IMG/VR virus record: IMGVR_UViG_3300024520_000063 | Coordinates: 1 to 64,000 of that record | Length of the DNA: 64,000 nt | Reading direction: 5' to 3' (one strand) | DNA from: a virus | Part shown: piece after piece, positions 9,657 through 61,578 of the stretch | Numbering within the stretch: the first letter of the stretch is position 1 | How the letters are laid out: the number at the start of each line of letters is the position of its first letter | Made by a program: the position numbers and the translations under genes | Notes under the pieces: model-generated | What the model was told of the DNA's origin: nothing | The model's input: only the letters and a program-made list of their open reading frames with translations | Databases searched by the model: none

Positions 9657-11081
9657 TTAGCCATTCACCAGCTGGTCGATAAGACCAAAACTGTTTTCGT
9701 GGCGAGGAACCGCATCGATGTAGTGCGTACCACGCATCGTGAAGATGCCAGAAGCAAAGTTGCTTCCATGGCTGTCCGTGACCTTAACCTCCATCATCGG
9801 AGACCGGCCAATGAACAACTCAGAGGGGACGCCACCCAGAACGTAAGTCAGGTCCGTGCCTGAACTCTTCGCTCGGATGTTGTTAACCTGCGTACCGGTG
9901 AACACTGGGTGTCCGCCGATCGATTCCCGAACTCCGCCGTCGCCATAAGCGAGAGCAGCAGCACGGAACTTCGGCTGACCCTGGGAATCTTCGCGATACT
10001 TCAGGGCTGCCCAGATCAGATTCCGCATCGTGAGGAACGTGCCCGTGCCGACAGGAGCGTTGTTGTCCGCGATCTTCGCGAGCAGCAACTCAGGATCCTT
10101 GGGCTCAAGCGTGTCGCCATTGGCACCAGTTGTGCTGGCGGTATGGGTCTGGATTCCGGAGTACCGGATCAGGCCCTGGATGTATGCTCCACCCGGACCA
10201 TCACAAATGTCCTGATCGACGTTCAGGGCGATGTCCTTGGTGATTTCATCTCGAACAAAAGCGTCTGCAGACACGGTCGTCGAGAATCGCATGAACTCTT
10301 CGGTCATCTCAACCAGGCCGTTGTACTTTTTGGCCTGCAGCAAGACGTCCGCAGTTGTCGGAGTACTTTCACTCACAGCTTCCGATTCCGCGTGAGCCGT
10401 AATCGTGACAGCGCCGGTCACTTTCGGGTAGCGAATCTGGCCCTGTTGCGGCATCGGGACTTCCCGAACGCCCGGAATCCGACCCCAGAGGGAGCTGGCT
10501 CGCAGGAATTCAATCAGTTCACCCTGCTGCGGGAAATCAACAAACGTCCCACCAGTCGTGGCGGTACGATATGTCAAATCCTTGCTCAGTCGCTTGGACA
10601 GCCAGGCCGCTTCATCCGGGTCGAAACTGCCCAGATTCGTGTTCATCTGACGCCACTCTTTGGTCAGCTCGGAGCCATCCTGCTCCATATAAGCTGAGCC
10701 GATCGGAACCATGAAGGCACCGCCGACCGTCTGGCCTTTGCTCTTGGATTCCTTGGCCAGCTTCTGGCAGAAGTCCATTTCGAGCTTGCAGTCTTCAGTA
10801 TACTCCTGCTTCGTGGCGTGAAGGACAAGTCCCTTGGCCAGGCGGGAGAAGCTGAATGCTCGGCTCGTGTTGACAGATTCGCCAACCGACATCCCTGGAG
10901 CACCTTGCATCCACGGAGCCTGTGCTTTCGAGTGCTCATCGACGGTCTTCGCAAGCGACTCCACATTGGCAGTCATCTTCTCGAAGCCATCAGCCAGATC
11001 TTCGATGCTCTTCGCGATGAACTCAGCAGGATCAGTCGCGCTTTCTTCGGTCGCATTGGCAGCGGTATTGGTGTCAGCCAT
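9657..11081 (-). CDS. major capsid protein (HK97-fold class inferred)
   Basis: approx 475-aa ORF directly after an acidic scaffold-like gene and followed by small head completion genes; size and position typical of MCP; start probably MADTNTAAN. Confidence 0.65.
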   Translation of the reverse strand: MADTNTAANATEESATDPAEFIAKSIEDLADGFEKMTANVESLAKTVDEHSKAQAPWMQGAPGMSVGESVNTSRAFSFSRLAKGLVLHATKQEYTEDCKLEMDFCQKLAKESKSKGQTVGGAFMVPIGSAYMEQDGSELTKEWRQMNTNLGSFDPDEAAWLSKRLSKDLTYRTATTGGTFVDFPQQGELIEFLRASSLWGRIPGVREVPMPQQGQIRYPKVTGAVTITAHAESEAVSESTPTTADVLLQAKKYNGLVEMTEEFMRFSTTVSADAFVRDEITKDIALNVDQDICDGPGGAYIQGLIRYSGIQTHTASTTGANGDTLEPKDPELLLAKIADNNAPVGTGTFLTMRNLIWAALKYREDSQGQPKFRAAALAYGDGGVRESIGGHPVFTGTQVNNIRAKSSGTDLTYVLGGVPSELFIGRSPMMEVKVTDSHGSNFASGIFTMRGTHYIDAVPRHENSFGLIDQLVNG

Positions 11082-11098
11082 GACAGTTTCTCTCCAGT

Positions 11099-11790
11099 TT
11101 AGGTGTCCTGGCCGCACGCGCGGGCCATAGAGCAGTTGATTTCGTCCAGTCGTTCCGCCAGACCAGACATCGAAGATGTGACCGTAGTCAGACTCTTAAC
11201 AACCTCAGTTGTTGAGTCCGCCTTACGGAGCTTCTTGCGTTCCCGCATAATTTCGACTGCTTTTGCAAGCGGGTCGATCTTCTTCTCTTCCGTCTTCGTC
11301 TCAACATCGTCGTTTTTAACGATGGTATCCGAGGTCTCGTCATCCCCATCCTTGGGTTCAGTCGCAGGCTCTTCCTGCTTGACGAGACTTTTGATCTCTT
11401 CGAAGCTCTTCTCGATTTCTTCCTTCTCGACCTTCATGGTGGACGCAACAATGTTGACTGCGCTTTCCAAGTCGGACATTCTCTCGCCGAGCTTGTCCAT
11501 TGTGGTTCTCAGTCGAATTCCAACCTCAGGCTCGGCGTCTTCATCCCAGTCAGAATGATGGATATCAATTCCGACATGCTCTTTGAGAAGTTCAATCAAC
11601 GGCTGAGCCTGGTCAGCAGTCAGGCCTTCGATGCTCTTCAGGATCTCGACAGCCTGGCTGATTTCATCCATGGACGTGTCCTCTTTTGTCAGTACAACAA
11701 AATCCGAACCTGGCACAGCGCCTTTTCGGACGAGGCTGACCTCTCCGATTGAGACATCGCTCAGGCGTCGTCGTTTGTTTGTTTCAGACA
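11099..11790 (-). CDS. scaffolding protein (acidic coiled-coil)
   Basis: highly acidic E/D/K-rich alpha-helical sequence immediately upstream of capsid gene; start at MSETNKRRR. Confidence 0.5.
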
Positions 11791-12437: not shown

Positions 12438-13181
12438 ATGAGTGAAAGGTTAGATTCGGTCGCAATCAAGTTCCGCGTATCGAACGAACTGTCAGTCCTG
12501 CTTCAGGACGCTGCTGGAAACAGACACCTTGATAAGGCAGAAATGATAAGGCAGGTACTGGCCTCGTGGCTAGGTCGTCCCGATACAGCACAGCTCACAA
12601 ACTCACTGAATATTACGTCTCGAAAGGCTATGGCCAGGGTAGATATCGGGTTAGAGAAACTCAGGCAGGGTATGAAATCTGGCTGGAAAGATCTGTCTTC
12701 CGGAATTATTGATCTTCTGAACTGTGGCTATGTCCGGATGGCGGACAGATACTGGAGATTCGCCAACAACCTCAACTTGAAGAGTCGGCATCTTGAGGGT
12801 ACTAAACCTCTTGCCGACATGAAGCTCATGATTAAAGAGCGAGCGCTCTATCTGGAGGAGAGCCTGTTCCCCCAATGGATCTCAGGCGAACCAAGGACTG
12901 TTGGACTCTTCGTGATCAACAGAAAGCTCAAGAAGGGAACTCGCGAGGAGCTTCTTCGTGTGAAGTCTCCCCACGATCTCCCGCTGCTTGACGACAAAAT
13001 ACTGGCCCATCACCGAGTTCCGGTTACTCCGAAAATCAGTTCGCGTTATTCAGGGCCATTCGACCAACCTGAACTGGCTTTGCCTGAGGCTGAGCAGATC
13101 CATTCTGGTCAGGTTTCTCCGGGGTTTTGCCTGCAGGATCCTGCCCTGGCTCAATCGGAATCCCAGTGTTCGGGTCAATGA
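12438..13181 (+). CDS. hypothetical protein, possible RHH-like N-terminus
   Basis: 247-aa plus-strand ORF filling gap in minus-strand head module, overlaps portal 3' end; N-terminus KAEMIRQVLASWL resembles ribbon-helix-helix. Confidence 0.3.
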   Translation: MSERLDSVAIKFRVSNELSVLLQDAAGNRHLDKAEMIRQVLASWLGRPDTAQLTNSLNITSRKAMARVDIGLEKLRQGMKSGWKDLSSGIIDLLNCGYVRMADRYWRFANNLNLKSRHLEGTKPLADMKLMIKERALYLEESLFPQWISGEPRTVGLFVINRKLKKGTREELLRVKSPHDLPLLDDKILAHHRVPVTPKISSRYSGPFDQPELALPEAEQIHSGQVSPGFCLQDPALAQSESQCSGQ

Positions 13182-14466
13182 CCTGGAAGCCAGAGATCAT
13201 GACTGGCCGGTCGCCCAGCTCGCCACCGAACGGCTTCAGGTTCATAAGAAGCTCACGAACCTCGTCCGGAGTGATGGCACCGCACTTCAGGCAAGTCAGA
13301 ATGTTATCTCTCAAGCTTTGCTGAGAGTCGACATTGCAAGGCCCCAGTTTAATGAACAGGTTGCCAGGGAAGTCCGAGGCAAGCTTCTGGGTCAGATGCT
13401 GGGAAATGTGCTCAAGGATCGGATCCACAGTCATCTTGCAGAACTGAGTGAGCGACCCTTCCATTGAGGCACTGGTCATTCCCTCTCCGAGGCCGACCAC
13501 AGACTTAGGAACACCATGAGTGGCCAAAGTGATAGACAGTGTTCTGTCCAGGCTGGAAGAGTAATCCAGTTCCTTCACGCTTCCGGAGTTGTATTGCCCG
13601 GAAAGCTTCAGGCCCGAGTGTGAGATCATCGGAGCACCCGTCTGATCCGCCATGCTGTGCTGGGCGAACAAATTGGCCCAGAGCTGGTGGACCTGATGTG
13701 GCTGGAGCCGATTCGTGCACTCGAAAACCATGCCTGGCGCGGCAAAATTCTTGAACTGGTAGTACAGACGCCTGTGCATCTCATCTTCCAGGTCAATAGT
13801 CGTTGCAGCCGCCTTAATCGAGGGAGTTCCGTAGTATCGGCCAGAATCACTCCAGTCCAGGCTGGGATTCTTGATATGGATCATCCACTCTGGCGGAACG
13901 ACGAAGTTTTCGCCCACGGCTCCAGAGTCGATCTGGTAACCGCCGACCATCTCTGTCTCACCCGACAGGACTTTCACCCACTGAGTCGGCATTGGCCAGA
14001 TTTCTCTGGGGATTCCAAACCCGTTGCGAGCCTTGTAGAGGAAAGAGTCGCCCGTCAGGAGTCTCCACCCAACCATGTAAAACCAGAGGTCCCATTCGGT
14101 ATCTACCGGGTTCACATCGCGGAGAAGCTCGACCAGCGGGTGCGTTGGGGAGACTTCTTCGGTCTTCCATGTGCCCTTCTGCTTGAATTTGCGGAAAACC
14201 TTGGCCTTTTGCATTGCGGCCATCCGAGCAATTGCTCCAATGGCGATATAGGTTGAGCCCTTGTACTGCTGGGCGTACTTGTTCCGATCTTCAACCCAGC
14301 GAGCGGGAGTTCCTGACTGGCCCAGTCGATTAGCCATTACCGGGAACTGCTGCTCAGCCGGAAACGTACGGATGTCTCGACCACGAGTCGGACCTTGAGA
14401 GAATTCAACCTCTCGGAACGAACTACCAGCGTTCTGAAGAATCGATTCCAGGTTCGTCAGGGCCAT
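13036..14466 (-). CDS. portal protein
   Basis: 476-aa ORF at head-module start with WDLWFYMVGW and other portal-like blocks; size typical. Confidence 0.7.
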   Translation of the reverse strand: MALTNLESILQNAGSSFREVEFSQGPTRGRDIRTFPAEQQFPVMANRLGQSGTPARWVEDRNKYAQQYKGSTYIAIGAIARMAAMQKAKVFRKFKQKGTWKTEEVSPTHPLVELLRDVNPVDTEWDLWFYMVGWRLLTGDSFLYKARNGFGIPREIWPMPTQWVKVLSGETEMVGGYQIDSGAVGENFVVPPEWMIHIKNPSLDWSDSGRYYGTPSIKAAATTIDLEDEMHRRLYYQFKNFAAPGMVFECTNRLQPHQVHQLWANLFAQHSMADQTGAPMISHSGLKLSGQYNSGSVKELDYSSSLDRTLSITLATHGVPKSVVGLGEGMTSASMEGSLTQFCKMTVDPILEHISQHLTQKLASDFPGNLFIKLGPCNVDSQQSLRDNILTCLKCGAITPDEVRELLMNLKPFGGELGDRPVMISGFQVIDPNTGIPIEPGQDPAGKTPEKPDQNGSAQPQAKPVQVGRMALNNAN

Positions 14467-15327: not shown

Positions 15328-16245
15328 ATGACCGACCTCAAATCGATCCCAGAGGGGAAGATTGAGACAGTTGAGATTTCCCTCTTGCGGAACAACCCGC
15401 TCAATGAGGAAATCTACGGCACCGAGGATGTCGACCCTGATCTTTTAAGGTCGATTCAAGATCACGGTGTCGATACGCCGATTGAAGTTCTTCCGGACGG
15501 AACTATCATCAAGGGCCACCGCAGAAAGCTGCACGCAGAAGAGGCTGGGCTTACAGAGGTCCCAGTTATTGTCCGCCACGAGCTGAACTCTCCGGAAGAG
15601 GTTGGCTTCGCTCTGATCGAAGACAATCGCCACCAGAGAAACAGGACGAATATACAGAAGGTGCGTGAAATCATGTACCTGACAGGGATGCTCCAGACCC
15701 AGAACAGAATCCGCAAGGCTACGGGGCTTCCTGTTTATGAGGCTGATGCCCATACGGACGAAGAACTTATGGAGCTTTCCGGGATGAGCCGGGAGAGCTA
15801 CGAGCAGGTTGCCAGTCTCACCGAAAGCTATGCAGCCAGGTTTGGATCGTCAGCATCTCCCCAGGATGTGGCCTGTGATCACATCGGAGTCAGCAAAAAG
15901 ACGTTCATGCAGGGACAGAATGCCCTAAAGACAGCAGAGGCCTGGCGGAGTGCTGGAAACGACAAAAAGGCCGACCAGATCGAAGAGGCTCTCCATAAGG
16001 GTATCTCAACTGGATATCAGGTCGCCAAGAAGATCGGTCAGCCCGGCAAGAGGAGTGAGAAGAAAGTAATCAAGGCTAAGGCCAGCATAGAGTCGGTCAT
16101 TCTCACTCTTAAGAGTATGACGGCGGCACTTCACAAGGCTCGCGTCGCCATTCCAGAATCACTGCGTGATCAGCTCGACACCATCATCAATAAAATCAAT
16201 AGCATGAGGGAAGAACTTGAAAAGTCCGAACTCGACAATACTTGA
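15328..16245 (+). CDS. ParB-like nuclease domain protein
   Basis: N-terminal ParB/Sulfiredoxin-type block (DTPIEVLPDGTIIKGHRRKLHAEEAGLTEVPVIVRHE). Confidence 0.65.
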   Translation: MTDLKSIPEGKIETVEISLLRNNPLNEEIYGTEDVDPDLLRSIQDHGVDTPIEVLPDGTIIKGHRRKLHAEEAGLTEVPVIVRHELNSPEEVGFALIEDNRHQRNRTNIQKVREIMYLTGMLQTQNRIRKATGLPVYEADAHTDEELMELSGMSRESYEQVASLTESYAARFGSSASPQDVACDHIGVSKKTFMQGQNALKTAEAWRSAGNDKKADQIEEALHKGISTGYQVAKKIGQPGKRSEKKVIKAKASIESVILTLKSMTAALHKARVAIPESLRDQLDTIINKINSMREELEKSELDNT

Positions 16246-18496
16246 GGGCGACAGCCTGCAAGTACTCAAAGGCCTGCCTGATAACTCATTCCAGTGCTCC
16301 GTAAGCTCGCCTCCTTACTGGAATTTGCGCAACTATCAAGTCGATGGACAGATAGGGCTTGAGCCAACCGCACGCGAATTCATCCAGAATCTCGTATCTG
16401 TTTACTCAGAACTAAAGAGGGTTCTCCATCCGTCTGGTATTGCCTGGATTAACATAGGCGACAACTACGCCGGTGGAGGAAACAAGCGAGGCAAGGGTAG
16501 TCCGATATCCAGCAAACAGTCCAGTAATGCCGGATGCACTGGCCAGCTTGCGGATGTGCCAATAGTAGAAGATCTTCCACGGAAGAACATGAATGGAATG
16601 CCATGGAGATTTGCCTTTGCAATGCAGGATGACGGCTGGGTCCTCCGAGATGCGATAATTTGGCAGAAAAAGAATCCGATGCCTACGAGCCAAAAAGATA
16701 GATGTACGAACTGTTACGAGTACATCTTTCAGTTCACGAAGGGTCCAAAGTACTTCTTTGATATGGAGTCTGTGAGAGAGCCTGCCAGATATGGAGCTGG
16801 GGAGAACTTTCGGAGTTCGTCATATCTCAATGATAAGTCTCACAACAACAGCCAAGACCGGTCAGGATCGACCGAAGGAGGGATTCCGGGCAAGGGTGGA
16901 ACGCGAGTGCCTAGGAACATCAGAAGCTGGGCAACCCAAGGCTATAAAGGTGCTCACTTTGCTTGTGTTGACGAGGAAACCCAGTGCTTGACCAAAGAAG
17001 GATGGAAGTCTCAAGATCAAATTAAGCCGGGTGATGTCGCCGCCCAGTACAACATGGAGAGCGGCCTCTTGTCCTGGGCTGAAGTTGAAGACGTAGCGAG
17101 ATACGATGTTTCTGACCAAGACATGGTTTCTGCCGAATGCCGTGACTTGTCAATGCTTTTGACTCCTAACCACAGAACGATAATCTCCAGAAGAAGATCG
17201 AGAGGAAAAGGCCATCACCCTCCGACCATAATCGAAGCTGAGAATCTTAGTGATGGCCACAGAATACCAGTCTCTGCCGACTGGGATGATGGCGATCATG
17301 ATCAAACCATGGGAGGGGTAGAGTGGGCAGAACTGATAGGATGGTACGTTGCGGAAGGGTACGAAAACAAGAAATCGTGGTCTGTGGATATATATCAAAG
17401 CAGATCAGCAAATCCGGAAAAGGTCGAGAGGATTCGGCATCTTCTGGATTACGTGGATGCCGAGTACGAAGAGACTCAATCTGAGAGGAAATACAAAAAT
17501 CGCACATGCAGCATGTCTTCATTCAGAATAACTGGTCACGCGGCCATAAAAATAAGAAGCATGGTCCCAGGGAAAAGGCTTTCTTGGTCTTATATGGGGC
17601 TGTCAGCAGAAGAGATGAGGGCTCTTGTTGCTGGACTTATTGCTGGAGATGGACACATTCGGCCAGATGATGGCCGGGTGTGCTTTATCCAGAAGTCGGA
17701 CCACTGTATCGACTTGGTTCAAGCAATGGCTGTTAGGCTGGGATATGCTGTAAAGATCACAAAATCCCCTTCAACATGGAGAATGTACCTGACTGAAAAA
17801 AGATACATTTCTCTTCGTGGTACGAATGGAAGTGGCAGGAATATATCAACAAAGAAATATTCCGGAGTTGTGTGGTGTCCAAAACTACCCCATGGAACCT
17901 GGGTTGCTAGGAGGAATGGACGAGCATTCATAACTGGGAATACTTTTCCAATTTCGCTCCCTCTATGGTGTATTACGGCCAGTGCTCCGAAAGCAGGCGT
18001 CTGTGCTAAATGCTTCACGCCATACAAGCGAGTAGTCGAAAGCATCCGCAGGGCGACCCGTCCGGGAGAAAACACCAAGATCAAGATGCCGGACGGATGG
18101 GACACAGGAGAGGGCGGGCACGGCAGTTTTCATCGGGAAGGCAGAGAGAAAGGCCAGTACCGTGACACAGCAGAGATTGGAAACAGAGATCCGCAACGTC
18201 ACGTCACAGAAACAACCACCGTTGGGTGGGAACCTGGATGCACTTGCGATTGCGGAACTGATTTCCCAGCAATTCTGGATCCCTTCTCAGGGGTCGCCAC
18301 TACAGGACTGGCCTGTTCGCGCCTCCGATGCCACTACGTGGGAATCGAACTTAATCCAGAGTATGCACAGATGTCGCGGGACAGAATCAAGGACGATCTG
18401 ATCAAGGGATTCGATCCGAACCCACATGCCGTGAACCTTAATCTGGGAACTGGTATCGACTTATGTCAGGAAAACGTGTCACAATTTAATTACTAA
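16217..18496 (+). CDS. beta-class amino-DNA methyltransferase (N6A/N4C), intein-containing
   Basis: motif IV SPPYWNLRNY near N-terminus and motif I DPFSGVATTG near C-terminus (beta-class order); central insertion with intein/LAGLIDADG blocks. Confidence 0.75.
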   Translation: MKSPNSTILEGDSLQVLKGLPDNSFQCSVSSPPYWNLRNYQVDGQIGLEPTAREFIQNLVSVYSELKRVLHPSGIAWINIGDNYAGGGNKRGKGSPISSKQSSNAGCTGQLADVPIVEDLPRKNMNGMPWRFAFAMQDDGWVLRDAIIWQKKNPMPTSQKDRCTNCYEYIFQFTKGPKYFFDMESVREPARYGAGENFRSSSYLNDKSHNNSQDRSGSTEGGIPGKGGTRVPRNIRSWATQGYKGAHFACVDEETQCLTKEGWKSQDQIKPGDVAAQYNMESGLLSWAEVEDVARYDVSDQDMVSAECRDLSMLLTPNHRTIISRRRSRGKGHHPPTIIEAENLSDGHRIPVSADWDDGDHDQTMGGVEWAELIGWYVAEGYENKKSWSVDIYQSRSANPEKVERIRHLLDYVDAEYEETQSERKYKNRTCSMSSFRITGHAAIKIRSMVPGKRLSWSYMGLSAEEMRALVAGLIAGDGHIRPDDGRVCFIQKSDHCIDLVQAMAVRLGYAVKITKSPSTWRMYLTEKRYISLRGTNGSGRNISTKKYSGVVWCPKLPHGTWVARRNGRAFITGNTFPISLPLWCITASAPKAGVCAKCFTPYKRVVESIRRATRPGENTKIKMPDGWDTGEGGHGSFHREGREKGQYRDTAEIGNRDPQRHVTETTTVGWEPGCTCDCGTDFPAILDPFSGVATTGLACSRLRCHYVGIELNPEYAQMSRDRIKDDLIKGFDPNPHAVNLNLGTGIDLCQENVSQFNY
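16985..17941 (+). mobile_element. intein with LAGLIDADG homing-endonuclease domain inside the methyltransferase gene
   Basis: starts Cys (CLTKEGW), contains LIGWYVAEGY and LVAGLIAGDGHI (two LAGLIDADG blocks), ends ...ITGN followed by Thr; splicing would restore HFATFP, matching HPAVFP of the paralogous MTase at 26922. Confidence 0.65.
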
Positions 18497-39363: not shown

Positions 39364-40461
39364 ATGGATAAGATTCAAGAAATGACACCTGAGCAAGAAC
39401 AGCAAATGGTTGAGTTCAGGGAAGAGTACCTTCAGATTGGACTGTCTACCGAACCCGCCAACAGAGAACTGGCAGAACAGGCCATTCAGTCAATCAGATC
39501 CAAGGCCCACAAGGAGTGCTCATCCTTCATGTGGTTCGACGGGATAGCGACAGCAGAATTATTCTTAAATATCGGGGCCAATCTCTGGGACAATCTCGGG
39601 GACAATCTCTGGGCCAATCTTAGTGACAATCTCGGGGCCAATCTCGGGGACAATCTCTGGGCCAATCTCAGGGCCAATCTCAGGGCCAATCTCTGGGCCA
39701 ATCTCGGGGACACTCTCTGGGCCAATCTTAGTGACAATCTCGGGGACAATCTCTGGGACAATCTCGGGTCCAATCTCGGGGCCAATCTCAGGGACAATCT
39801 CAGGGACAATCTCGGGTCCAATCTCGGGGCCAATCTCAGATTACACAGTCAGCTCGAAGGGCAAATGGAGTATTGGATTGCGTGGTACATGTTTCCTCAT
39901 AAATTCCTGAGGAACATTCATTCGGATTCCGACATGGAACATTTGAATGAGTGGGACTCAGTATTCCGATCGTGCTGCTGGTGGTGGCCATACGAAAACA
40001 CCACAATTGTTGCCGAAAGGCCCGCCTCGATCGTCAGAAACGAAGAGGGATTGCTGCATAATGAATCTGGACCTGCAATCTCGTGGCGAGATGGTTGGGA
40101 ACACTTTGCCTTGGAAGGCGTTAATCTGGATCGTCAAATCGTCATGGCTCCTGAGTCTCAATCGGTACAACAATTGGAATCAGAAGAAAACGAAGAGGTG
40201 CGTAGAATCAGAATCGAGCGATTTGGGGTTCTGCGGTATCTGGAAGAGTCTAACTCATCAGTCGTAGATACTCGTCGCAACGACATCGAAGCCACTTTTG
40301 AAATACTGGCCAATACGCCAAATGGCCAGCGATTAGTCACACACTGTCCCTCTACGGGAAGGCGTTATTTCCTTTCTATCCCAGAGCAGGTCGAAACCTG
40401 CGAACAGGCACAAGCTGTCCTGTGGGATGATCACGACATGAGAATTATAGGGAGAACGTAA
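39364..40461 (+). CDS. tetrapeptide-repeat protein (about 22 x [AD]NL[WGRS])
   Basis: 365-aa ORF with RBS aaaggagacaagtcATG; central 12-bp tandem repeats translate to ANLWDNLGDNLWANLS... Confidence 0.6.
   Translation: MDKIQEMTPEQEQQMVEFREEYLQIGLSTEPANRELAEQAIQSIRSKAHKECSSFMWFDGIATAELFLNIGANLWDNLGDNLWANLSDNLGANLGDNLWANLRANLRANLWANLGDTLWANLSDNLGDNLWDNLGSNLGANLRDNLRDNLGSNLGANLRLHSQLEGQMEYWIAWYMFPHKFLRNIHSDSDMEHLNEWDSVFRSCCWWWPYENTTIVAERPASIVRNEEGLLHNESGPAISWRDGWEHFALEGVNLDRQIVMAPESQSVQQLESEENEEVRRIRIERFGVLRYLEESNSSVVDTRRNDIEATFEILANTPNGQRLVTHCPSTGRRYFLSIPEQVETCEQAQAVLWDDHDMRIIGRT
39577..39839 (+). repeat. 12-bp tandem repeat array (consensus GMCAATCTCKGG), about 22 units
   Basis: direct reading. 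Confidence 0.9.
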
Positions 40462-45261: not shown

Positions 45262-45582
45262 ATGTCAACGCAGGATTTCGGCACTCCGGAAGTAGTCACG
45301 GAAACCGTCACCGTGGAGAACGTCAAGATCCTTGTGATCAACAACGCCGGAAACGGCTTTGCTGACTTCAAGACGTTCCCGGCTGGGACCAAGTACGTGG
45401 ACATCTTCAAGCAGATCATGCCTGAAGGTGCGAAGCCGGAGGATTACTCCATCCGGGTCAACAAGAACCTGGTTTCCACTGAGGACGGTGCCACTCATGG
45501 TGACAACCTGTCCATCACCAGTGCCGTCGCCAACCCGAACGATCGCCTGACGGTCGCTCCGAAGAAGGTCGCTGGAGCGTAG
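45262..45582 (+). CDS. beta-grasp ubiquitin-like (ThiS/MoaD-like) protein candidate
   Basis: 106 aa; pattern I.V.N...V....DGATH.GDNL.I resembles ThiS/MoaD core (I.VNGE.V....L.DGDEV.I); sits first in E2-JAB-E1 cluster; ends ...KKVAGA rather than GG. Confidence 0.4.
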   Translation: MSTQDFGTPEVVTETVTVENVKILVINNAGNGFADFKTFPAGTKYVDIFKQIMPEGAKPEDYSIRVNKNLVSTEDGATHGDNLSITSAVANPNDRLTVAPKKVAGA

Positions 45583-45699
45583 TCGCTGCTTCTGGGGGCT
45601 GGAATTTCCGGCCCCCAGACTTTGGAGCTTCCTGGGGATACCAGAGAGGTTCGATTCCTCCGGCTCCACTTCACGTACCTCTAATCAGGAGACCTAATT

Positions 45700-46890
45700 G
45701 TGCTACACGAAATTATTCCTGCGACCCCGCGATTAGTCGAAAAGCTTGTAGCGAGAGAGAGGGATCCCGCAAGAACAGATCCACTACTGTGGGAAAAATC
45801 AGAAGACACTGAGATGTATATAGAAATAGCATCTCGCGAGACGGCCAAGCTGGTTTCCAGCGTAGATGTCATGCAGAGGAAAATCAGGGCGTTAAACGCA
45901 ACACAGAAGCCATCTTTCGGGAAAGCTCTAAGAGATTCTGCATATACTGCCTATAACGACGCAAAGCATCAATTGGATGAGGCTTACTACAACCTAACCT
46001 CGTTCAATATACCCGAACGTCGCAGCAGCCCGGTCGCTCGGACCAACAACACCAAGAAGATTTCGTATCTGAGCAACTCCGACTTCATAGAGCAGGAAAA
46101 GGTGATGATACACCGCTCATATAAGACGGTGTTCATCACAACAGAACCAATCGTAATCGAAAACATCAACCTTGGTGCTTTTGAGATTCATGTCAGGCCA
46201 CGTGTTGACTCGACAGCAGAGGCATACGCACTCAACCCCAACCCGGCAATCAGCAATCCAGTCGTTACCCACCCGAATGTGAAGAATAACACTGTCTGCC
46301 TGGGCGAAGGTAAAGATGCATACAACAAGGCCGTTATGGAAGGGCGTCTTTGCGATGCACTGCAAATTGCCTTATCCGTCGTGAGAAATTACGGGTGGAG
46401 AAATCCCTACCTGTCTATTAGCGAATGGTTTGGAGTCAACTGTGGATTCTGTGGCCACTTGAATACACCAAATAGAACATTTCAGTGCATCGACTGCAAA
46501 GTAAAGGGATGCAAAACCTGCGCTTACACAGGGACTGCTCGAAGATGCTACGAGTGCCATGAGTACAGGCTGGCCAATCCTCCAGACGAGTGCTACAGGT
46601 GCAGTCGAGAGGCTCATAATGAATGCCCGGACTGCAAGAAGAAAGTCTGCGGGAGATGCTGGATCGAAGATTCCTGCAATCTCTGCTATCGCAGAAACAA
46701 TCAAGCCTGCAACAGGTGCGAGCGTGTCACCCGGATAGACACGTGGCCAGATCCGTGTGCTGGATGTGAGGTACGTTTATGTGCTCTATGTATGGAGCAC
46801 GGAGTTTTGTGTCCTACGTGCTATCAGGGTCACCTCAATGAGAACCCGGATGTGGCACGACTTATTGGGAGTCTGCGAGATGACGACTAA
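45700..46890 (+). CDS. E2 (UBC)-like ubiquitin-conjugating domain protein with C-terminal Cys-rich zinc-ribbon array
   Basis: GTG start after RBS aggagac; VTHPNVKNNTVCLGEG matches E2 HPN(I/V)xxxGx(I/V)C active-site signature; C-terminal half has >20 Cys in CxxC pairs. Confidence 0.55.
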   Translation: MLHEIIPATPRLVEKLVARERDPARTDPLLWEKSEDTEMYIEIASRETAKLVSSVDVMQRKIRALNATQKPSFGKALRDSAYTAYNDAKHQLDEAYYNLTSFNIPERRSSPVARTNNTKKISYLSNSDFIEQEKVMIHRSYKTVFITTEPIVIENINLGAFEIHVRPRVDSTAEAYALNPNPAISNPVVTHPNVKNNTVCLGEGKDAYNKAVMEGRLCDALQIALSVVRNYGWRNPYLSISEWFGVNCGFCGHLNTPNRTFQCIDCKVKGCKTCAYTGTARRCYECHEYRLANPPDECYRCSREAHNECPDCKKKVCGRCWIEDSCNLCYRRNNQACNRCERVTRIDTWPDPCAGCEVRLCALCMEHGVLCPTCYQGHLNENPDVARLIGSLRDDD

Positions 46891-48013
46891 CAACAAACCT
46901 GTGTTCTCTCCGTCTGCATGGCAGAAATACATTCTGCTTCGAGACATGGGGGGCACTGAGATTTCCGCGATGGCGATCTGCTTTGACCCCGACGAACCGC
47001 TGAAAATCAACGATCTCTACGTGCCCGAGCAAACATGCAGCTCGGCCTACACTGAGTTCGATGACGACGCCTTGAGTGAGCTGTACGAGATGTATGGCCC
47101 GCAGATCGACCCGGATGACGACACCAAGCTCACCGGTCTGCATCCTTATCAGTTCAGCCGCATCTGGCTGCACACTCACCCAGGTCAGAGCGCAAAGCCT
47201 TCAGGGACCGACCACACCACATTCAAGGAGCGGTTCGGGCCTCCAGACTGGGCAGTTATGTTCATTCTGGCACGTGGGGGACAAACCCATTGCGAGCTTA
47301 AGGTTCGCAGTGAATCCGGTCTTGTTAACGCTCATGTCAGGCACGATTCCAGTGAGTGGGTCGACTGGAGCATGCCGTGCGTTCCGGTGAATCATGATGA
47401 ATTGAAGGAAATCTACAAGAAGAAAGTAAAAACCAGCCACGCGGCGGTGTCTTACGGCGGTGCGTGGAATGGCGGACACTCCTACACCACTCGTGGGGGC
47501 AAGCCAGGATACTACGCCAATGGAAAGTGGACCGAGTATGGGACTCAAGGGAAGTCCAACCAGACCGGCACAAAGAAGATTGAAGTTAACCAAAGAAACC
47601 AGAGAGAGCCACTCGACTTTGGCGACCTGGAATGGAGATACAAGCGTGAAGACCACTTCATGAAGCAGTATCTCCAGGATGTTTACGTGGACATCAAGAC
47701 ATGGGGAAATGCTGCCGACGTCATGAAGAGAGATGACTTTGAAGAAGTTTGGGCTCCGGACGACCAGGACTTCGCAATGTGGATGGACCAGAAGTGGCTC
47801 ATGGGTCGAGATTGCAAAATCGAATTCATCGACGAGAGCGAAGATGGAGAAGAGACCATATGGGAATGCTCTGCCCAGGAAGCGCAGATGCTTGTCCAGA
47901 AGAAAGTCATCGAGGACACGGACTTCGGAGAGTTTTTCGGTGCAGACAAAAAGGATGACGAAGACGATGAGGAATTGGATTTCTCTTTCCCTGGTCTGCA
48001 CATGTGGCAGTAA
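46880..48013 (+). CDS. JAB/MPN+ (JAMM) metallopeptidase domain protein
   Basis: IWLHTHPGQSAKPSGTDHTTF = HxHx7Sx2D JAMM motif with upstream Glu; overlaps upstream stop by 11 nt. Confidence 0.65.
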   Translation: MTTNNKPVFSPSAWQKYILLRDMGGTEISAMAICFDPDEPLKINDLYVPEQTCSSAYTEFDDDALSELYEMYGPQIDPDDDTKLTGLHPYQFSRIWLHTHPGQSAKPSGTDHTTFKERFGPPDWAVMFILARGGQTHCELKVRSESGLVNAHVRHDSSEWVDWSMPCVPVNHDELKEIYKKKVKTSHAAVSYGGAWNGGHSYTTRGGKPGYYANGKWTEYGTQGKSNQTGTKKIEVNQRNQREPLDFGDLEWRYKREDHFMKQYLQDVYVDIKTWGNAADVMKRDDFEEVWAPDDQDFAMWMDQKWLMGRDCKIEFIDESEDGEETIWECSAQEAQMLVQKKVIEDTDFGEFFGADKKDDEDDEELDFSFPGLHMWQ

Positions 48014-48058
48014 GGCTGGCTGTAACCGCTTAATGTTTCTCTAACGGAGGTGGAAGGT

Positions 48059-48913
48059 ATGCCGTCACTTAACAGGTTTTCTCGACAGGAGAGTATTGTC
48101 CCGGTTGAGAAGAAGACTCCGGTGACAATCATCGGGGTCGGAGCTATTGGACTTCAGCTCGCGAAGTTCATGGCCTCAATGGGAATCCCTCAAATCAGGT
48201 TGATCGACTTTGATGTAGTCGAAGATACCAACATCACTACGCAGGGATACACCGGATCGCAGCTGGGATTGCCCAAGGTGGAAGCCGCAAGGGATTCCAT
48301 CCATGCCATCGACGCGGACATCAAGGTCATCGCAGAAAATGACCGATGGAGACCGAAAACCAAGATTGATGGGGTCGTGTTCTGCTGCGTCGACTCGATC
48401 AAGGCTCGCGAGTGCATCTGGAAAGGCATCAAGAATAAGGTGGATTTCTTCTGTGATGCCAGAATGCTCGGTGAGGTCTTCCATGTGTACGCATGGATCA
48501 AAGGTGCCCCTCACGAAGACTACGAGCAGACGCTGTTCGCAGAAGAAGAGACGATCGCAGGCCAGTGTACCGCAGCAGGTACGATCTACTGTGCTGGCAT
48601 GGCCGCAGGTGCCATGTGTCACCAGTACACGCGATGGATCAGGGGTGTTCTGCCTCCCGATGTGAGCTGGTCCTGTGCTTTGCTGTCCAGCGAGCTTTCA
48701 GTCATCTCACGGGACTTCGTTGCTCCGCCAGAGGATACTGGAATGCTGGTCAAGGAAGTAATCGTCGAGAAGCCAGAAGAGGTTGCGACTCCTGTGGAAG
48801 AAGAGGCAGAAGAAGCCTCAGCTGAACCAGAACCGGTGCCCGCTCTGGCGGACCCTGTGGACGACTATGACGATGATGACTGGGACAGAGAACGAGAAGA
48901 GGACCGCTGGTAA
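48059..48913 (+). CDS. E1-like (ThiF/MoeB family) activating enzyme
   Basis: VTIIGVGAIGLQLAKFMASMGIPQIRLIDFDVVEDTNITTQ matches ThiF/MoeB Rossmann GxGxxG ... D.D.VE.SNL.RQ block; RBS ggaggtgg; followed by terminator. Confidence 0.7.
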   Translation: MPSLNRFSRQESIVPVEKKTPVTIIGVGAIGLQLAKFMASMGIPQIRLIDFDVVEDTNITTQGYTGSQLGLPKVEAARDSIHAIDADIKVIAENDRWRPKTKIDGVVFCCVDSIKARECIWKGIKNKVDFFCDARMLGEVFHVYAWIKGAPHEDYEQTLFAEEETIAGQCTAAGTIYCAGMAAGAMCHQYTRWIRGVLPPDVSWSCALLSSELSVISRDFVAPPEDTGMLVKEVIVEKPEEVATPVEEEAEEASAEPEPVPALADPVDDYDDDDWDREREEDRW

Positions 48914-48924
48914 CAATTCCCAAT

Positions 48925-48960
48925 ACGGAGCGCCAACCTTGGCGCTCCGTATTTCCTTTT
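48925..48960 (+). terminator. rho-independent terminator (ACGGAGCGCCAA/TTGGCGCTCCGT stem + T-tract)
   Basis: direct reading: acggagcgccaaccttggcgctccgtatttcctttt. Confidence 0.7.
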
Positions 48961-48971
48961 AAGGACTAGCC

Positions 48972-50321
48972 ATGAATAGAAAGAGAGTTAAGCAGATCCT
49001 GAAGGCTTGTGGGAACTGGTCTCAGAGTCAGGAATTCGACATCCGCCCCGTCCGACAACAGTTGGCCCGTGCCACGGGCCAACTGAACACCTCAAGGCGG
49101 ATAATTACGCAATCCGCCATAAGGGGCTCTATTACTCGCGAAGAACACCTGGCCCTTCAGAGGGCAGTAGAAGAAACAAGATCCAACTTGTCTACTCTTA
49201 CCCGCTGGGTCAGAGATCTCCCGTTCGACACCCAAACCAGAGAGTCAGCCGCACCGAATCTGGACTATGTCGATCGGGACGAGTACGTCATTGACCGGAA
49301 GACAATCAGTTTCACCACAGAACCCATCACATTTGATGATGTTGAGCTGGGCAGATTCAAAGTCTCACTGAATACAGAAAATGGCACTCTCATAGCCGAG
49401 GCCCTTGAGCCTAACCACCCACAAGAGGACTCAAGAGTTACCCATCCGAACATCAAGAATGACGCTATCTGCATGGGAGAAGGAGCTGGACCGTTCTCGG
49501 CCTGCATCAGACAAGGCTTGTTCTTCCACGCACTGGATATCGCAGTATCCGTCGTAAGAACCAATGGGGACGACAGCCCTTACGTTTCAATTGAAAACTG
49601 GGACGGGTACGAATGCGGCGCGTGTGGCGACAGTACCACGGATATATGCCGCGAGTGTGAAGAGGCGTTTTGCTCAGAGTGCCAGATCGCGGACACGGAT
49701 GGATATTCACGCTGCGATGATTGCTCTCCGCCAACCTGCTGCATCTGTGAAGCTGTCAGGTTCGGAGAAACCTGTTCCGCCTATGGGTGCTATGAATCTA
49801 TCTGTGGAGCGTGCTTGGATAATAATCACGTATGTCCGGAACACAGGCCTGTATGTGCAATCTGCGAAGAAAAGCATTCCGGAGATACCCCTTGTCCTGG
49901 CTGTGGCGATAGCGTCTGCGATGAATGCGGCTGGGAGCGATGCCACCTGTGCGATGAGTACAAATGCTCAAATTGCATTGATCAGTGCCATGCCTGCGAG
50001 GAAAAATCCTGTAACGGATGCTCTGCCATTAAGTGCGAGGAGTGCCCAGAGCATATTTGCGGAGCATGTATGCAATCCTGTGAGTGTGGAGAAGATGTCT
50101 GTGCGACATGCTTTTCCGATAACGGAGATTGTTGTTCCAACTGTAAGGAGCCTGAGGAATGTTCGGAGACAACAGAGACGACCCCGACGAATTCATCAGA
50201 AGGGCCGCAACAACCACAGTCACCAGAAGGTTCCGGTCAAGACGAACCGAACTCTACCAGGTCAAGCGAAGAAGTATCGCAGGATGTGGTCGTATGCGAG
50301 GTGATCCTCTCGAACGACTGA
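48972..50321 (+). CDS. second E2 (UBC)-like protein with extended Cys-rich zinc-ribbon array (paralog of 45700)
   Basis: VTHPNIKNDAICMGEG E2 signature; about 60 Cys in CxxC arrangements in C-terminal 250 aa. Confidence 0.55.
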   Translation: MNRKRVKQILKACGNWSQSQEFDIRPVRQQLARATGQLNTSRRIITQSAIRGSITREEHLALQRAVEETRSNLSTLTRWVRDLPFDTQTRESAAPNLDYVDRDEYVIDRKTISFTTEPITFDDVELGRFKVSLNTENGTLIAEALEPNHPQEDSRVTHPNIKNDAICMGEGAGPFSACIRQGLFFHALDIAVSVVRTNGDDSPYVSIENWDGYECGACGDSTTDICRECEEAFCSECQIADTDGYSRCDDCSPPTCCICEAVRFGETCSAYGCYESICGACLDNNHVCPEHRPVCAICEEKHSGDTPCPGCGDSVCDECGWERCHLCDEYKCSNCIDQCHACEEKSCNGCSAIKCEECPEHICGACMQSCECGEDVCATCFSDNGDCCSNCKEPEECSETTETTPTNSSEGPQQPQSPEGSGQDEPNSTRSSEEVSQDVVVCEVILSND

Positions 50322-54601: not shown

Positions 54602-55498
54602 ATGTCGCAGACTGACCAGACAGAACTTTGTAACGTGATCATGGAGCACTGCCGAGTCAGGAATGCTTTCCTGAAGAGCAAGAATGCCATCATCAACAGA
54701 ACAGCATCCAGCATTGCAACGGTGATTGGATATCACTCCGGCATGGAAGAGGTCGATCGGAAAAAGCAATACAACGCGGCCCGAGATTTCGTAGTGAAGC
54801 GTATCGCTGGCAAGGAAGCCCAGATGGATGGCGAACTCAGCGATCGACAGCGACTCGCAATCGAGGCTCTTGTTGGTGGTGTCATGGGAAGTGCCCAGGC
54901 CTTCACCGAACAGGAGAACGTCTATAAGAAAGAGCTGACGAAGCTGGGCAGGCAGCTGGAAATCTGGGAGAGATGGGCCAAGGATGTCCGAGGTATCTCT
55001 GAGTTCGGACTGTCTGTCGTCGTAGGGGAAATCGGAAATCTGGACAACTATCCGAACCCAGCCAAGGTCTGGAAGCGGATGGGATGTGCCCCCTATGAGA
55101 AGAACGGGGAAACCAAGGCCCCGAGTACGTGGCGGTCCAAGGGCGGACTTAAGAGCGAAGACTGGGAAATCCTTGGATACAGCCCGAGACGCCGCAGCGT
55201 GATCTACAACCTGGCAGCGTCCATCATTAAGGCGAATCCCAAGGACTCAGGGTCGGAGTTCAGGGCAAGATACGACGAAGCCAAAGAGCTGGGCTTGGAG
55301 AAACACCCTGATTGGAGCTTGGGCCACGCACACAACCACGGGATGCTGCTGTGTGGGAAGAGGTTCCTGAGGGAATTGTGGATCAACTGGACAGAACCGG
55401 ATTCCGAATTGTCACCGATATCCGAAGTTTCAGAACCGGTTGTCACCACAACAGAGAGGGTTCCATTTGCGATCACCGAAGAGTTGAGCTTGAAGTAG
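54602..55498 (+). CDS. HhH protein resembling C-terminal domain of IS110-family transposases (no DEDD domain)
   Basis: ISEFGLSVVVGEIGNLDNYPNPAKVWKRMGCAPYEKNGETKAPSTWRSKGGLKSEDWEILGYSPRRRSVIYNLAASIIK resembles Transposase_20 helix-hairpin-helix region. Confidence 0.35.
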   Translation: MSQTDQTELCNVIMEHCRVRNAFLKSKNAIINRTASSIATVIGYHSGMEEVDRKKQYNAARDFVVKRIAGKEAQMDGELSDRQRLAIEALVGGVMGSAQAFTEQENVYKKELTKLGRQLEIWERWAKDVRGISEFGLSVVVGEIGNLDNYPNPAKVWKRMGCAPYEKNGETKAPSTWRSKGGLKSEDWEILGYSPRRRSVIYNLAASIIKANPKDSGSEFRARYDEAKELGLEKHPDWSLGHAHNHGMLLCGKRFLRELWINWTEPDSELSPISEVSEPVVTTTERVPFAITEELSLK

Positions 55499-61096: not shown

Positions 61097-61423
61097 CGAA
61101 AGGCCCGCGTAGTGTTAATCAACACGCAAGTCTCTAAAACTTGAAATCTGGGTTAAAGTCCCAGCGCGGGCAATCAATTACCGACCCGGACCCTGTTGCC
61201 GAATAATGCCGTGTCTCGACCGACTGCGCCCGTGTAACCGAAAAAAGCCCTTACCTTCCGCGTAGAAGAATGCCACCGAGGGAACACTTACCGGAAAGCT
61301 CACCGTAACCGATCGCTACTGTTTTTCTCTTGACTAATCAGGATTCTCAAATAGGCTTTCATCTGCCGACCCTCAGGGGAACTTGGACTGGCCCGGTCTT
61401 GTGACTCTGGGGTGTCGGCTTTT

Positions 61424-61502: not shown

Positions 61503-61578
61503 GAAGAGGTGGTGTAGCGGAAACACGCCGTCGTGATCGATCAGGGCGGAACCCGAGGTTCAAATCCTCGTCCCTTCA
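61503..61578 (+). tRNA. second tRNA-like element
   Basis: acceptor GAAGAGG/TCCCTTC (one mismatch), D-arm GTGT-AGCGGAA-ACAC, T-arm CGAGG-TTCAAAT-CCTCG; anticodon region has 12-nt loop so noncanonical. Confidence 0.3.

Follow-up and report, generated by a model that had tools for sequence, protein, structure and literature searches.

Two E2-like proteins with cysteine-pair arrays in a ubiquitin-like modifier cassette carried by a tailed phage

We examined a window of 64,000 nucleotides of viral DNA (IMG/VR record IMGVR_UViG_3300024520_000063, positions 1 to 64,000), which belongs to a tailed phage, for two genes whose products join a region resembling ubiquitin-conjugating (UBC, or E2) enzymes to a tail of densely repeated cysteine pairs. 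We call these proteins E2-A and E2-B. On balance we favor the view that they are the E2 enzymes, the carriers of a ubiquitin-like protein (Ubl), of a self-contained Ubl cassette, and that the tail of each would be a metal-stapled scaffold that binds targets. The cassette is characteristic of mobile elements of Planctomycetota, and a tailed phage has acquired it and added a second E2. Judged by its homologues, the fusion of core and array is the norm in a large, uncurated Planctomycetota family.

A preliminary description of this DNA listed two paralogous E2-like open reading frames (ORFs) of 396 and 449 amino acids, and both were found exactly as stated, on the plus strand (Table 1), as were the two peptide strings quoted from them. 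They share one cassette with a Ubl, an E1 and a JAB metallopeptidase, in agreement with the mention there of E1 and Ubl candidates. E2-A begins with GTG, with AGGAGA 8 nucleotides upstream. Hidden Markov models (HMMs) of the family recognize E2-A and E2-B at 1.3e-60 and 2.3e-68, respectively, and the two are homologous to one another by BLASTP (E = 1e-32, 29% identity over 361 columns), members of one family. Two orthologues of E2-B on other contigs (P0002 and P0003) have 43% identity to it along the full length. E2-A and E2-B have in common an HPN motif and a loop that is shorter by 6-7 residues. A recent duplication of the E2 gene within the phage was considered but is not supported, as the core sequences of A and B show no closer relationship with one another than with those of chromosomal family members.

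The UBC-like region had been described as N-terminal. A shared E2-like region with HPN and a following cysteine is indeed present, but it occupies the middle of each protein: predicted long helices cover residues 1 to approximately 100-125, and the UBC-like core comes after them (approximately residues 130-245 in A and 100-212 in B). The histidine, proline and cysteine of the signature HP[H/N]-x6-C are invariant in 62 aligned homologues, and HPH-x5-9-C-x-G occurs in 147 of the 148 proteins newly returned among the top 150 representatives of the family search described below. AlphaFold2 models had a mean predicted local distance difference test (pLDDT) score of 72.6 for E2-A, with 80-94 across core residues 130-240, and of 69.0 for E2-B, with 77-93 across core residues 100-200 and 77-91 across array residues 300-390; both place in the middle domain, which is confidently modeled, a beta-meander with the HPN loop, the cysteine and two helices. 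A 213-sequence core alignment was compared by hhalign with seven canonical E2s and matched them over 94 columns at P = 0.0048, a score equaled or exceeded by 3 of 150 block-shuffled controls (empirical P approximately 0.02). The elements G-x-F, HPN and the cysteine fell in register (HPN...Cys85 of canonical E2s), as did VL-x-TYNP-x-SPYV with LL-x2-PNP-x-DPL. A Foldseek comparison with 350,542 chains produced no significant match; E2 chains (E 0.4-1.5) were among the top 50 for both models, with target-normalized template modeling (TM) scores of 0.28-0.42 (UBE2H, a Leishmania E2 and UbcA1 for model A; Ubc13, CDC34 and UbcH5b for model B).

The core resembles canonical UBC/E2 domains (UQ_con and Prok-E2_A to E) in elements that co-align with theirs: a beta-meander and then HPN, a cysteine shortly after the motif (6 residues intervene, and 7 in UBE2D2) and a helix closed by an NP-x-(D/S)P turn. 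It also has the same kind of partners, an E1 and a Ubl. However, most of the family has HPH instead of HPN. The family also has an extra helix after the cysteine, a cysteine array in place of the C-terminal helices and roughly 100-125 additional helical residues at the N-terminus. The HP[H/N]-x6-C signature, the modest profile match, the recurrent weak Foldseek matches and the operon context suggest that both proteins are E2-type enzymes, and we refer to them as E2-like.

The family was delimited by an exhaustive search with a profile of the tail-less N-terminal part only, counting representatives of clusters at 50% identity. This search found 2,489 clusters at E <= 1e-3, 1,633 at E <= 1e-10 and 868 at E <= 1e-30. 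Of these 148 newly returned proteins, at least 128 had a tail that matched a strict anchor pattern, and a tail is also present in most of the others that were read. The fusion had been called a non-standard architecture, and it is true that no curated family in Pfam, NCBIfam or PADLOC matches it, but within this family of more than 2,000 clusters it is the rule. This recurrence also disposes of the concern that the cysteine-rich halves might be separate genes or frame artefacts. Both ORFs are unbroken and each has a ribosome-binding site, and hundreds of independent assemblies contain the core-plus-tail fusion, both parts of which are under purifying selection; these comparative data refute an origin as assembly or frame artefacts or as non-coding sequence, to which we attach practically no probability. 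A word-indexed search returned 26 relatives, and 65 were then obtained with a profile, none with an assigned name; those from named organisms were from Phycisphaerae, Anaerobaca lacustris and a Planctomycetota metagenome-assembled genome (MAG). No description of the E2-plus-array family was found in the literature searched, which did not include the 2011 paper by Burroughs, Iyer and Aravind on prokaryotic RING-like domains.

Partnership with a Ubl and an E1 is a consistent trait of the family. When one genome was scanned per species, 106 loci were confirmed, and 80 were kept. Nearly all of the 80 are from Planctomycetota (Pirellulales, Phycisphaerae, Sedimentisphaerales, Kuenenia, Blastopirellula and Planctomycetaceae), and the exceptions come from a Victivallales MAG, a MAG with the label Actinomycetes, an entry labelled no further than 'uncultured bacterium' and, with two contigs, a MAG labelled archaeon. 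Several genomes or MAGs carry two or three copies of the cassette. Across 88 loci the genes follow one another without exception as Ubl > E2 > JAB > E1, all on the same strand; the E2 is present in 88, JAB in 83, E1 in 78 and Ubl in 76, and the loci that lack a gene lie at contig ends. The C-terminal glycine of the Ubl is conserved. A tyrosine integrase, IS21, a TraG-like coupling protein of a type IV secretion system, BrxB and large serine recombinases are neighbors at individual loci, and because of these integrase, insertion sequence and recombinase neighbors the cassette is taken to travel on mobile elements and islands. Clustering of the genes at these loci revealed no conserved E3-like neighbor. 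The upstream island often contains DUF2958 (52 loci), a family of 129 amino acids in one to three copies (42 loci) and a 541-amino-acid protein with a weak HATPase_c_3 match (28 loci). Scans for close relatives of A and B gave no match in IMG/VR, 50,697 GenBank phage records or PLSDB plasmids; IMG/VR held one related cassette only, in an element flanked by serine recombinases.

In the window, HMMs built from the family detected two E2-like proteins and a single copy each of the Ubl, the JAB and the E1, encoded on the plus strand in the order Ubl, E2-A, JAB, E1, E2-B, and every gene of the cassette has a plausible ribosome-binding site before it. The phage Ubl is 43-47% identical to the products of the genes for 73-77 amino acids that precede the E2 in chromosomal cassettes. 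Its C-terminal K-x-x-G-A is invariant, and the chromosomal proteins continue beyond it for 0-5 residues; a match to MoaD in the PDB was weak (E 0.55). The JAB protein has the conserved catalytic glutamate and H-T-H-P-G-x-S-x2-P-S-x-T-D (in full, Glu...H-x-H-x7-S-x2-D). It matches Pfam Prok-JAB weakly (E 1.2e-3), and the best PDB match of its family profile is the Rpn11-like protein of Caldiarchaeum (6fjv_A, 7.6e-5). The phage JAB is approximately 150 residues longer than chromosomal ones, with a Gly/Tyr/Asn-rich insert and an acidic end that are also present in the syntenic phage contig L002. The E1 matches Pfam ThiF (4.5e-22) and MoeB (1jw9_B, 5.5e-10) and has GxGxxG and the D/R/K adenylation residues; these and Cys173, in the context G-x-C-T-A-x-x-T-I-Y, are invariant in 69 homologues, and an inserted cysteine domain is absent. 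We take Cys173 to line up with Cys184 of ThiF and Cys250 of UBA5. The chromosomal E1 is about 217 amino acids long and lacks the 60-residue acidic C-terminal extension of the phage E1. A second E2 after the E1 recurs in L002, where the proteins encoded on either side share 44-83% identity with their counterparts in the window. The terminator-like hairpin that separates E1 from E2-B in the window (Table 1) may allow E2-B to be expressed apart from the four-gene cassette; in L002 the gap between E1 and E2 is 27 nucleotides and leaves no room for an equivalent hairpin.

The tails are cysteine-rich, as had been claimed, and far beyond chance, but the total counts are 26 for E2-A and 46 for E2-B, not the approximately 30 and 60 first given, an overcount that concerned mainly B. 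The array contains 24 of these cysteines in 127 residues (19%) in A and 41 in 177 residues (23%) in B. The pairs of B comprise 17 CxxC together with Cx4C, CxxH and CxC, making about 20 ligand pairs, and both orthologues, P0002 and P0003, keep every one of these ligands, including the three variant pairs. Across the 62 aligned homologues the CxxC pairs are invariant or nearly so. The canonical chromosomal array has ten CxxC pairs in 81-82 residues. Among 286 tails, its spacers were 11,4,3,4,3,4,3,4,5 in 92 sequences and 11,4,3,4,3,4,4,4,5 in 64, together 156 of the 286. The repeat unit has 15 residues, C-x2-C-x4-C-x2-C-x3, and insertions and deletions in the tail consist of whole two-pair, 15-residue units. 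This gives a size series from 4 pairs (P0061) and 8 (P0139) through the canonical 10 to 14 (P0108); among inspected representatives the mode is 10 and the range 2-20. By the family alignment, the array of E2-A, with spacers 11,4,8,11,7,4,5,7,12,4,6, is the canonical ten pairs plus one inserted two-pair unit and longer loops. That of E2-B has a lineage-specific N-terminal block (residues 215-298, with the Cx4C and C-x2-H291) and then a canonical array (308-391).

The arrays probably bind metal, as judged from the invariant ligand quartets and the replacements between cysteine and histidine. One group of sequences has lost pairs 6 and 9 together, and in another pairs 8 and 10 have both become CxC. 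These joint changes hint that pairs about three apart share a metal (an i/i+3 ligand pattern), albeit in sequences that may come from few lineages. The label of zinc ribbon given in the preliminary description is not supported: Pfam contains no zinc-ribbon family that matches even at E <= 10, and most spacers, with 3-5 residues, are too short for the hairpins of a zinc ribbon. Dissection with profile HMMs for RING, B-box and zinc ribbon, which had been suggested there, brought nothing to threshold. The best Pfam matches, to ANCHR-like_BBOX (E 0.03-0.04), zf-RING_5 (E 0.02-1.2) and zf-B_box (E 0.36), fell far short of the gathering scores, and profiles thus identified no RING or B-box E3 domain in the arrays. 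The structures nearest to model B were tandem LIM, PHD, FYVE, CHY and RING domains, all weak (E 0.04-2). The dense CxxC pairs recall binuclear treble-clef zinc domains (B-box, RING, LIM and PHD), and the spacing C2C-x7-12-C2C-x4-C2C, seen in A and where the canonical array begins, resembles that of B-box type 1. In contrast to those domains, the canonical array is a uniform 15-residue repeat with spacers of 3-4 residues that grows and shrinks in two-pair steps, not a set of discrete four-pair domains. In a loose sense, then, it belongs with treble-clef-like zinc modules, as a member of no defined family.

Some variants of the architecture and a C-terminal motif deserve mention. After the acidic linker, 78 of 280 family members end in Q-P-D/H-G-V/L-G-Q-A-x-V-L-P-G (e.g., P0010, P0013 and P0030), and E2-B and its orthologue P0002 have a faintly similar V-S-Q-D/A-V-V; this conserved short motif could be a docking peptide. 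P0066 (733 amino acids) consists of two complete E2-plus-array units fused head-to-tail, P0170 (783 amino acids) has a trypsin-like protease region before the E2, and in P0065 (742 amino acids) a long array built from the same cysteine repeat follows an N-terminal region that is unrelated. A word-indexed homologue search with the tail alone gave 130 candidates, none of which passed, and P0065 is the sole other occurrence known from this analysis.

Core and tail differ in how they evolve. Measures were taken on 83 distinct gapless sequences of identical spacing, with the ratio of nonsynonymous to synonymous substitution rates (dN/dS) calculated for 74 unsaturated pairs. Mean pairwise identity was 58% in the core and 23% at the non-cysteine positions of the tail, and the cysteines never change. 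The median dN/dS was 0.39 for the tail and 0.135 for the core and was higher in the tail in 72 of the 74 pairs. The geometry of the scaffold is thus tightly kept, and its surface evolves about three times faster. Positive selection across the whole tail was considered and rejected, as dN/dS exceeded 1 in the tail of just one of the 74 pairs. The consensus tail of the family has 25% Asp and Glu vs. 7.6% Lys and Arg, and an acidic linker follows it.

A mechanism can be proposed for the cassette, and we infer its five steps from homology, genomic context and analogy with Bil and other E1-E2 systems. JAB would trim the Ubl after Gly105, and the minimal E1 would adenylate that glycine, possibly handing the Ubl to its invariant Cys173. 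The Ubl would then pass to Cys200 of E2-A or Cys167 of E2-B, beside the HPN motif, and the loaded E2 would place it on a lysine of the target, a mark that JAB could later undo. The array would stand where the last helices of a canonical E2 would be. Since each 15-residue unit supplies four ligands, the chromosomal form could hold up to 5 metal ions, A up to about 6 and B up to about 10, and the array would make a stiff scaffold of fixed geometry with quickly changing exposed residues. We propose that this scaffold is the part that binds targets, because no E3-like neighbor is conserved and the array is the only fast-evolving, length-variable part; such an E2 would need no separate E3 and would be an E2/E3 hybrid in function. 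The tails plausibly act in target choice, one of the roles suggested in the preliminary description, and the RING-like E3 function in cis also suggested there is possible by analogy. With one Ubl, one E1, one JAB and two E2s of unlike tail charge (+4 and -26), the phage cassette might serve two sets of targets, and the phage might benefit by taking over the host, by keeping out rival elements or by interfering with a cassette of the host. A more far-reaching version, possible in our opinion but doubtful, is that the family is a new class of E2/E3 hybrid in which a length-adjustable, mostly acidic solenoid of 15-residue metal-stapled units acts as a programmable target-recognition rod, and that the phage took over such a host cassette and now has two rods with which to tag host proteins while infecting, or to counter the host copies. 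In a bolder sub-reading still, the very acidic rods would imitate DNA and thereby attract defence proteins that bind it.

Several results weigh against E2 enzymes with target-binding tails. Pfam returned no family at E <= 1 for either protein or for the isolated N-terminal parts, and no significant profile match places them in UQ_con or Prok-E2_A to E. Neither NCBIfam nor PADLOC has a model that matches the E2-like protein, and when the N-terminal alignment was used as a sequence profile against the PDB, coiled-coil noise was the only outcome. None of the statistics for the E2 fold is strong alone (Foldseek E 0.4-1.5), and the core of A is no nearer to B than to chromosomal members. Finally, dN/dS of the tail is below 1 in 73 of the 74 pairs, and the fast evolution of the tail could therefore reflect relaxed constraint and not adaptation to targets.

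This last observation also suits an explanation that we regard as rather unlikely, in which the array is a structural or docking element only. It would replace the missing E2 helices, hold the E2 on a very small E1 without a ubiquitin-fold domain, or oligomerize, and target choice would lie elsewhere, e.g., in the N-terminal helices or the Ubl. The first cysteine pair does fall within the conserved core block W-x-G-x2-C-x2-C-G, the array spacing is strongly constrained, and the E1 is a bare adenylation domain of approximately 217 amino acids. However, a conserved partner surface should keep its non-cysteine residues, and these are just 23% identical; the family ranges from 2 to 20 pairs, the 4-pair variant included, with the same type of E1; and the two phage E2s use one E1 yet have oppositely charged tails. 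The restriction of conservation in the tail to the cysteines could instead point to a chemically active array, whether a redox or metal sensor that switches the E2 on or off, a set of rubredoxin-like iron sites or a relay of the Ubl over reactive cysteines, comparable to that of RBR or RCR-type E3 ligases. In their sequences, C-x-x-C-G and C-P-x-C, the first and the last pair look like knuckles of the rubredoxin type, and many of the hosts are anaerobic Planctomycetota (e.g., Sedimentisphaerales, Phycisphaerae and Kuenenia). We nevertheless consider this improbable, given that the ligands come strictly in fours with an occasional change of cysteine to histidine (CxxH in B and HxxC in P0120), which is typical of structural zinc sites, that no conserved free unpaired cysteine stands out in the array, and that the best structural neighbors are the zinc domains LIM, PHD, FYVE and RING.

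The preliminary description had also offered DNA recognition as a role of the tails. Many CxxC zinc modules bind nucleic acids and the tail of A is mildly basic (net +4), so tails could steer Ubl conjugation to DNA-bound proteins or DNA ends. However, B has a net charge of -26 over 177 residues, the tails of the family are rich in acidic residues and lead into an acidic linker, and Pfam gave no match to a nucleic-acid-binding profile. DNA binding is therefore unlikely for B and for the family at large, their tails being strongly acidic, and we give nucleic-acid binding very little chance as the explanation of the arrays.

Among described systems, the cassette most invites comparison with BilABCD, with which it shares the four genes in the same order (Ubl, E2, JAB, E1). 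In Type II systems up to nine residues come after a conserved glycine of BilA, an extension that the JAB protein BilC removes; BilA of E. aridi ends in Gly97-Ala98 (PMC10557695). The Ubl described here likewise has the glycine and a short extension, of 1-6 residues across the family, and both it and E. aridi BilA end in Gly-Ala; its cleavage is proposed by analogy. Both systems do without a separate E3 and reside in mobile or defence islands (PMC10557695), and Bil picks a single target without an E3 (bioRxiv 10.1101/2023.09.04.556158). However, BilD, the E1, has an inactive and an active adenylation domain and a CYS domain (PMC10557695), whereas the E1 of our cassette is a single adenylation domain of approximately 217 amino acids (287 in the window) that lacks the inactive adenylation domain and the CYS domain. 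The E2 carries HP[H/N]-x6-C-x-G-[DE]-G vs. the C-E-H-H of Type II BilB, in addition to its helical N-terminus and cysteine array, and the hosts are almost only Planctomycetota, this copy being borne by a phage with two E2s. Among the ubiquitin-like defence models of PADLOC and NCBIfam, only generic ThiF and JAB matches were obtained in the cassette. From its sequence, the cassette appears Bil-like in layout and falls outside Bil on E1 architecture and E2 signature. The operons of the Caldiarchaeum/Asgard type (ubiquitin, E1, E2, a small RING E3 and an Rpn11-like JAB) are likewise complete non-eukaryotic modifier cassettes that combine an E2 with a zinc module, and the JAB of the phage family is nearest in the PDB to the Caldiarchaeum protein named above (6fjv_A, 7.6e-5). 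In those operons, however, a small protein of its own supplies the RING, and the E1 and E2 clearly resemble those of eukaryotes. Here, the zinc-type module forms one protein with a very divergent E2, which is accompanied by an E1 of the MoeB/ThiF kind. The distinguishing marks of our cassette among prokaryotic Ubl-E1-E2-JAB cassettes are the fusion of E2 and array, the restriction to Planctomycetota and the phage form with two E2s.

Bacterial Ubl conjugation (CBASS Cap2, Bil and Bub) is a young field in which target choice without an E3 is an open question. The family described here is large (2,489 clusters) and lies outside Pfam, NCBIfam and PADLOC for its E2-like protein. It offers a candidate specificity module, in that the one part that evolves fast and varies in length belongs to the E2 protein; if the array is indeed a target-recognition rod, E2 variants alone would set the specificity of a Ubl system. 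The 15-residue, four-cysteine unit, gained and lost whole, may be a new type of metal-stapled repeat scaffold. A tailed phage with a full Ubl-E1-E2-JAB set and two E2s also raises the possibility of protein tagging by phages against their hosts.

Table 1. Features of the cassette and of the phage in the window (aa, amino acids or residue numbers)
Feature	Position	Strand	Remarks
E2-A, 396 aa	45700..46890	+	N-terminal helical region, UBC-like core, 12-pair cysteine array; uninterrupted ORF
HPN (H191-P192-N193) to putative catalytic Cys200, E2-A	46270..46299	+	
E2-A array, aa 248-374	46441..46821	+	24 Cys in 12 CxxC pairs; net charge +4
E2-B, 449 aa	48972..50321	+	N-terminal helices, UBC-like core, about 20 ligand pairs, acidic Ser/Thr-rich end; uninterrupted ORF
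HPN (H158-P159-N160) to putative catalytic Cys167, E2-B	49443..49472	+	
E2-B array, aa 215-391	49614..50144	+	41 Cys plus His291; net charge -26
Ubl candidate, 106 aa	45262..45582	+	C-terminus K-K-V-A-G105-A106; TAG stop; Shine-Dalgarno-like AAGGGGAA upstream
JAB/JAMM metallopeptidase, 377 aa	46880..48013	+	11-nucleotide overlap with the stop of E2-A; phage-specific C-terminal extension
Minimal E1, 287 aa	48050..48913	+	ThiF/MoeB-type single adenylation domain; acidic tail from about aa 225
Terminator-like hairpin	48922..48953	+	14-bp stem with 8 G-C pairs, then TCCTTTT; consensus scan
HK97-type capsid protein	9657-11117	-	
Portal protein	13036-14466	-	

Some observations concern the start of the cassette. 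The 117-nucleotide spacer between Ubl and E2-A (45583-45699) contains a G+C-rich hairpin, CTGGGGGC...GCCCCCAG, at approximately 45592-45618, and a string resembling a tRNA T-arm, GGTTCGATTCC, at approximately 45648-45658. A tRNA or attachment site in this spacer, as suggested by GGTTCGATTCC, was rejected, as ARAGORN and Rfam found nothing there. The Ubl gene is the sole gene of the cassette with a TAG stop (45580-45582), a codon that ends 13 of the 70 long ORFs of the window, and read-through would append 33 residues past Gly-Ala, up to a TAA. Elsewhere in the window, ARAGORN identified a tRNA with the anticodon CUA (an amber suppressor, labelled Pyl) at 61103-61172 and a tRNA-Asp with the unusual anticodon AUC at 61503-61578.

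Besides the capsid and portal proteins, the phage genes of the window include a ParB-like protein, a DNA methyltransferase and a sliding clamp. The 759-amino-acid DNA methyltransferase encoded at 16217-18496 (+) matches N6_N4_Mtase in two stretches and LAGLIDADG_3 at residues 465-522, and looks like a case of intein or homing-endonuclease insertion. A DUF6745 protein (39364-40461, +; Pfam 2.7e-25) is weakly similar (E ~3e-5) to genes that neighbor the cassette elsewhere; such genes lie directly upstream of the Ubl at two loci (L005 and L006) and approximately 0.2 kb upstream at a third (L020), which hints at a looser link between this protein and the cassette. An ORF at 54602-55498 (+) has a weak match to the IS110 family (Transposase_20, 1.4e-4). 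Since it is conserved at 70% identity in L002, it is probably a resident phage gene and not a recent insertion.

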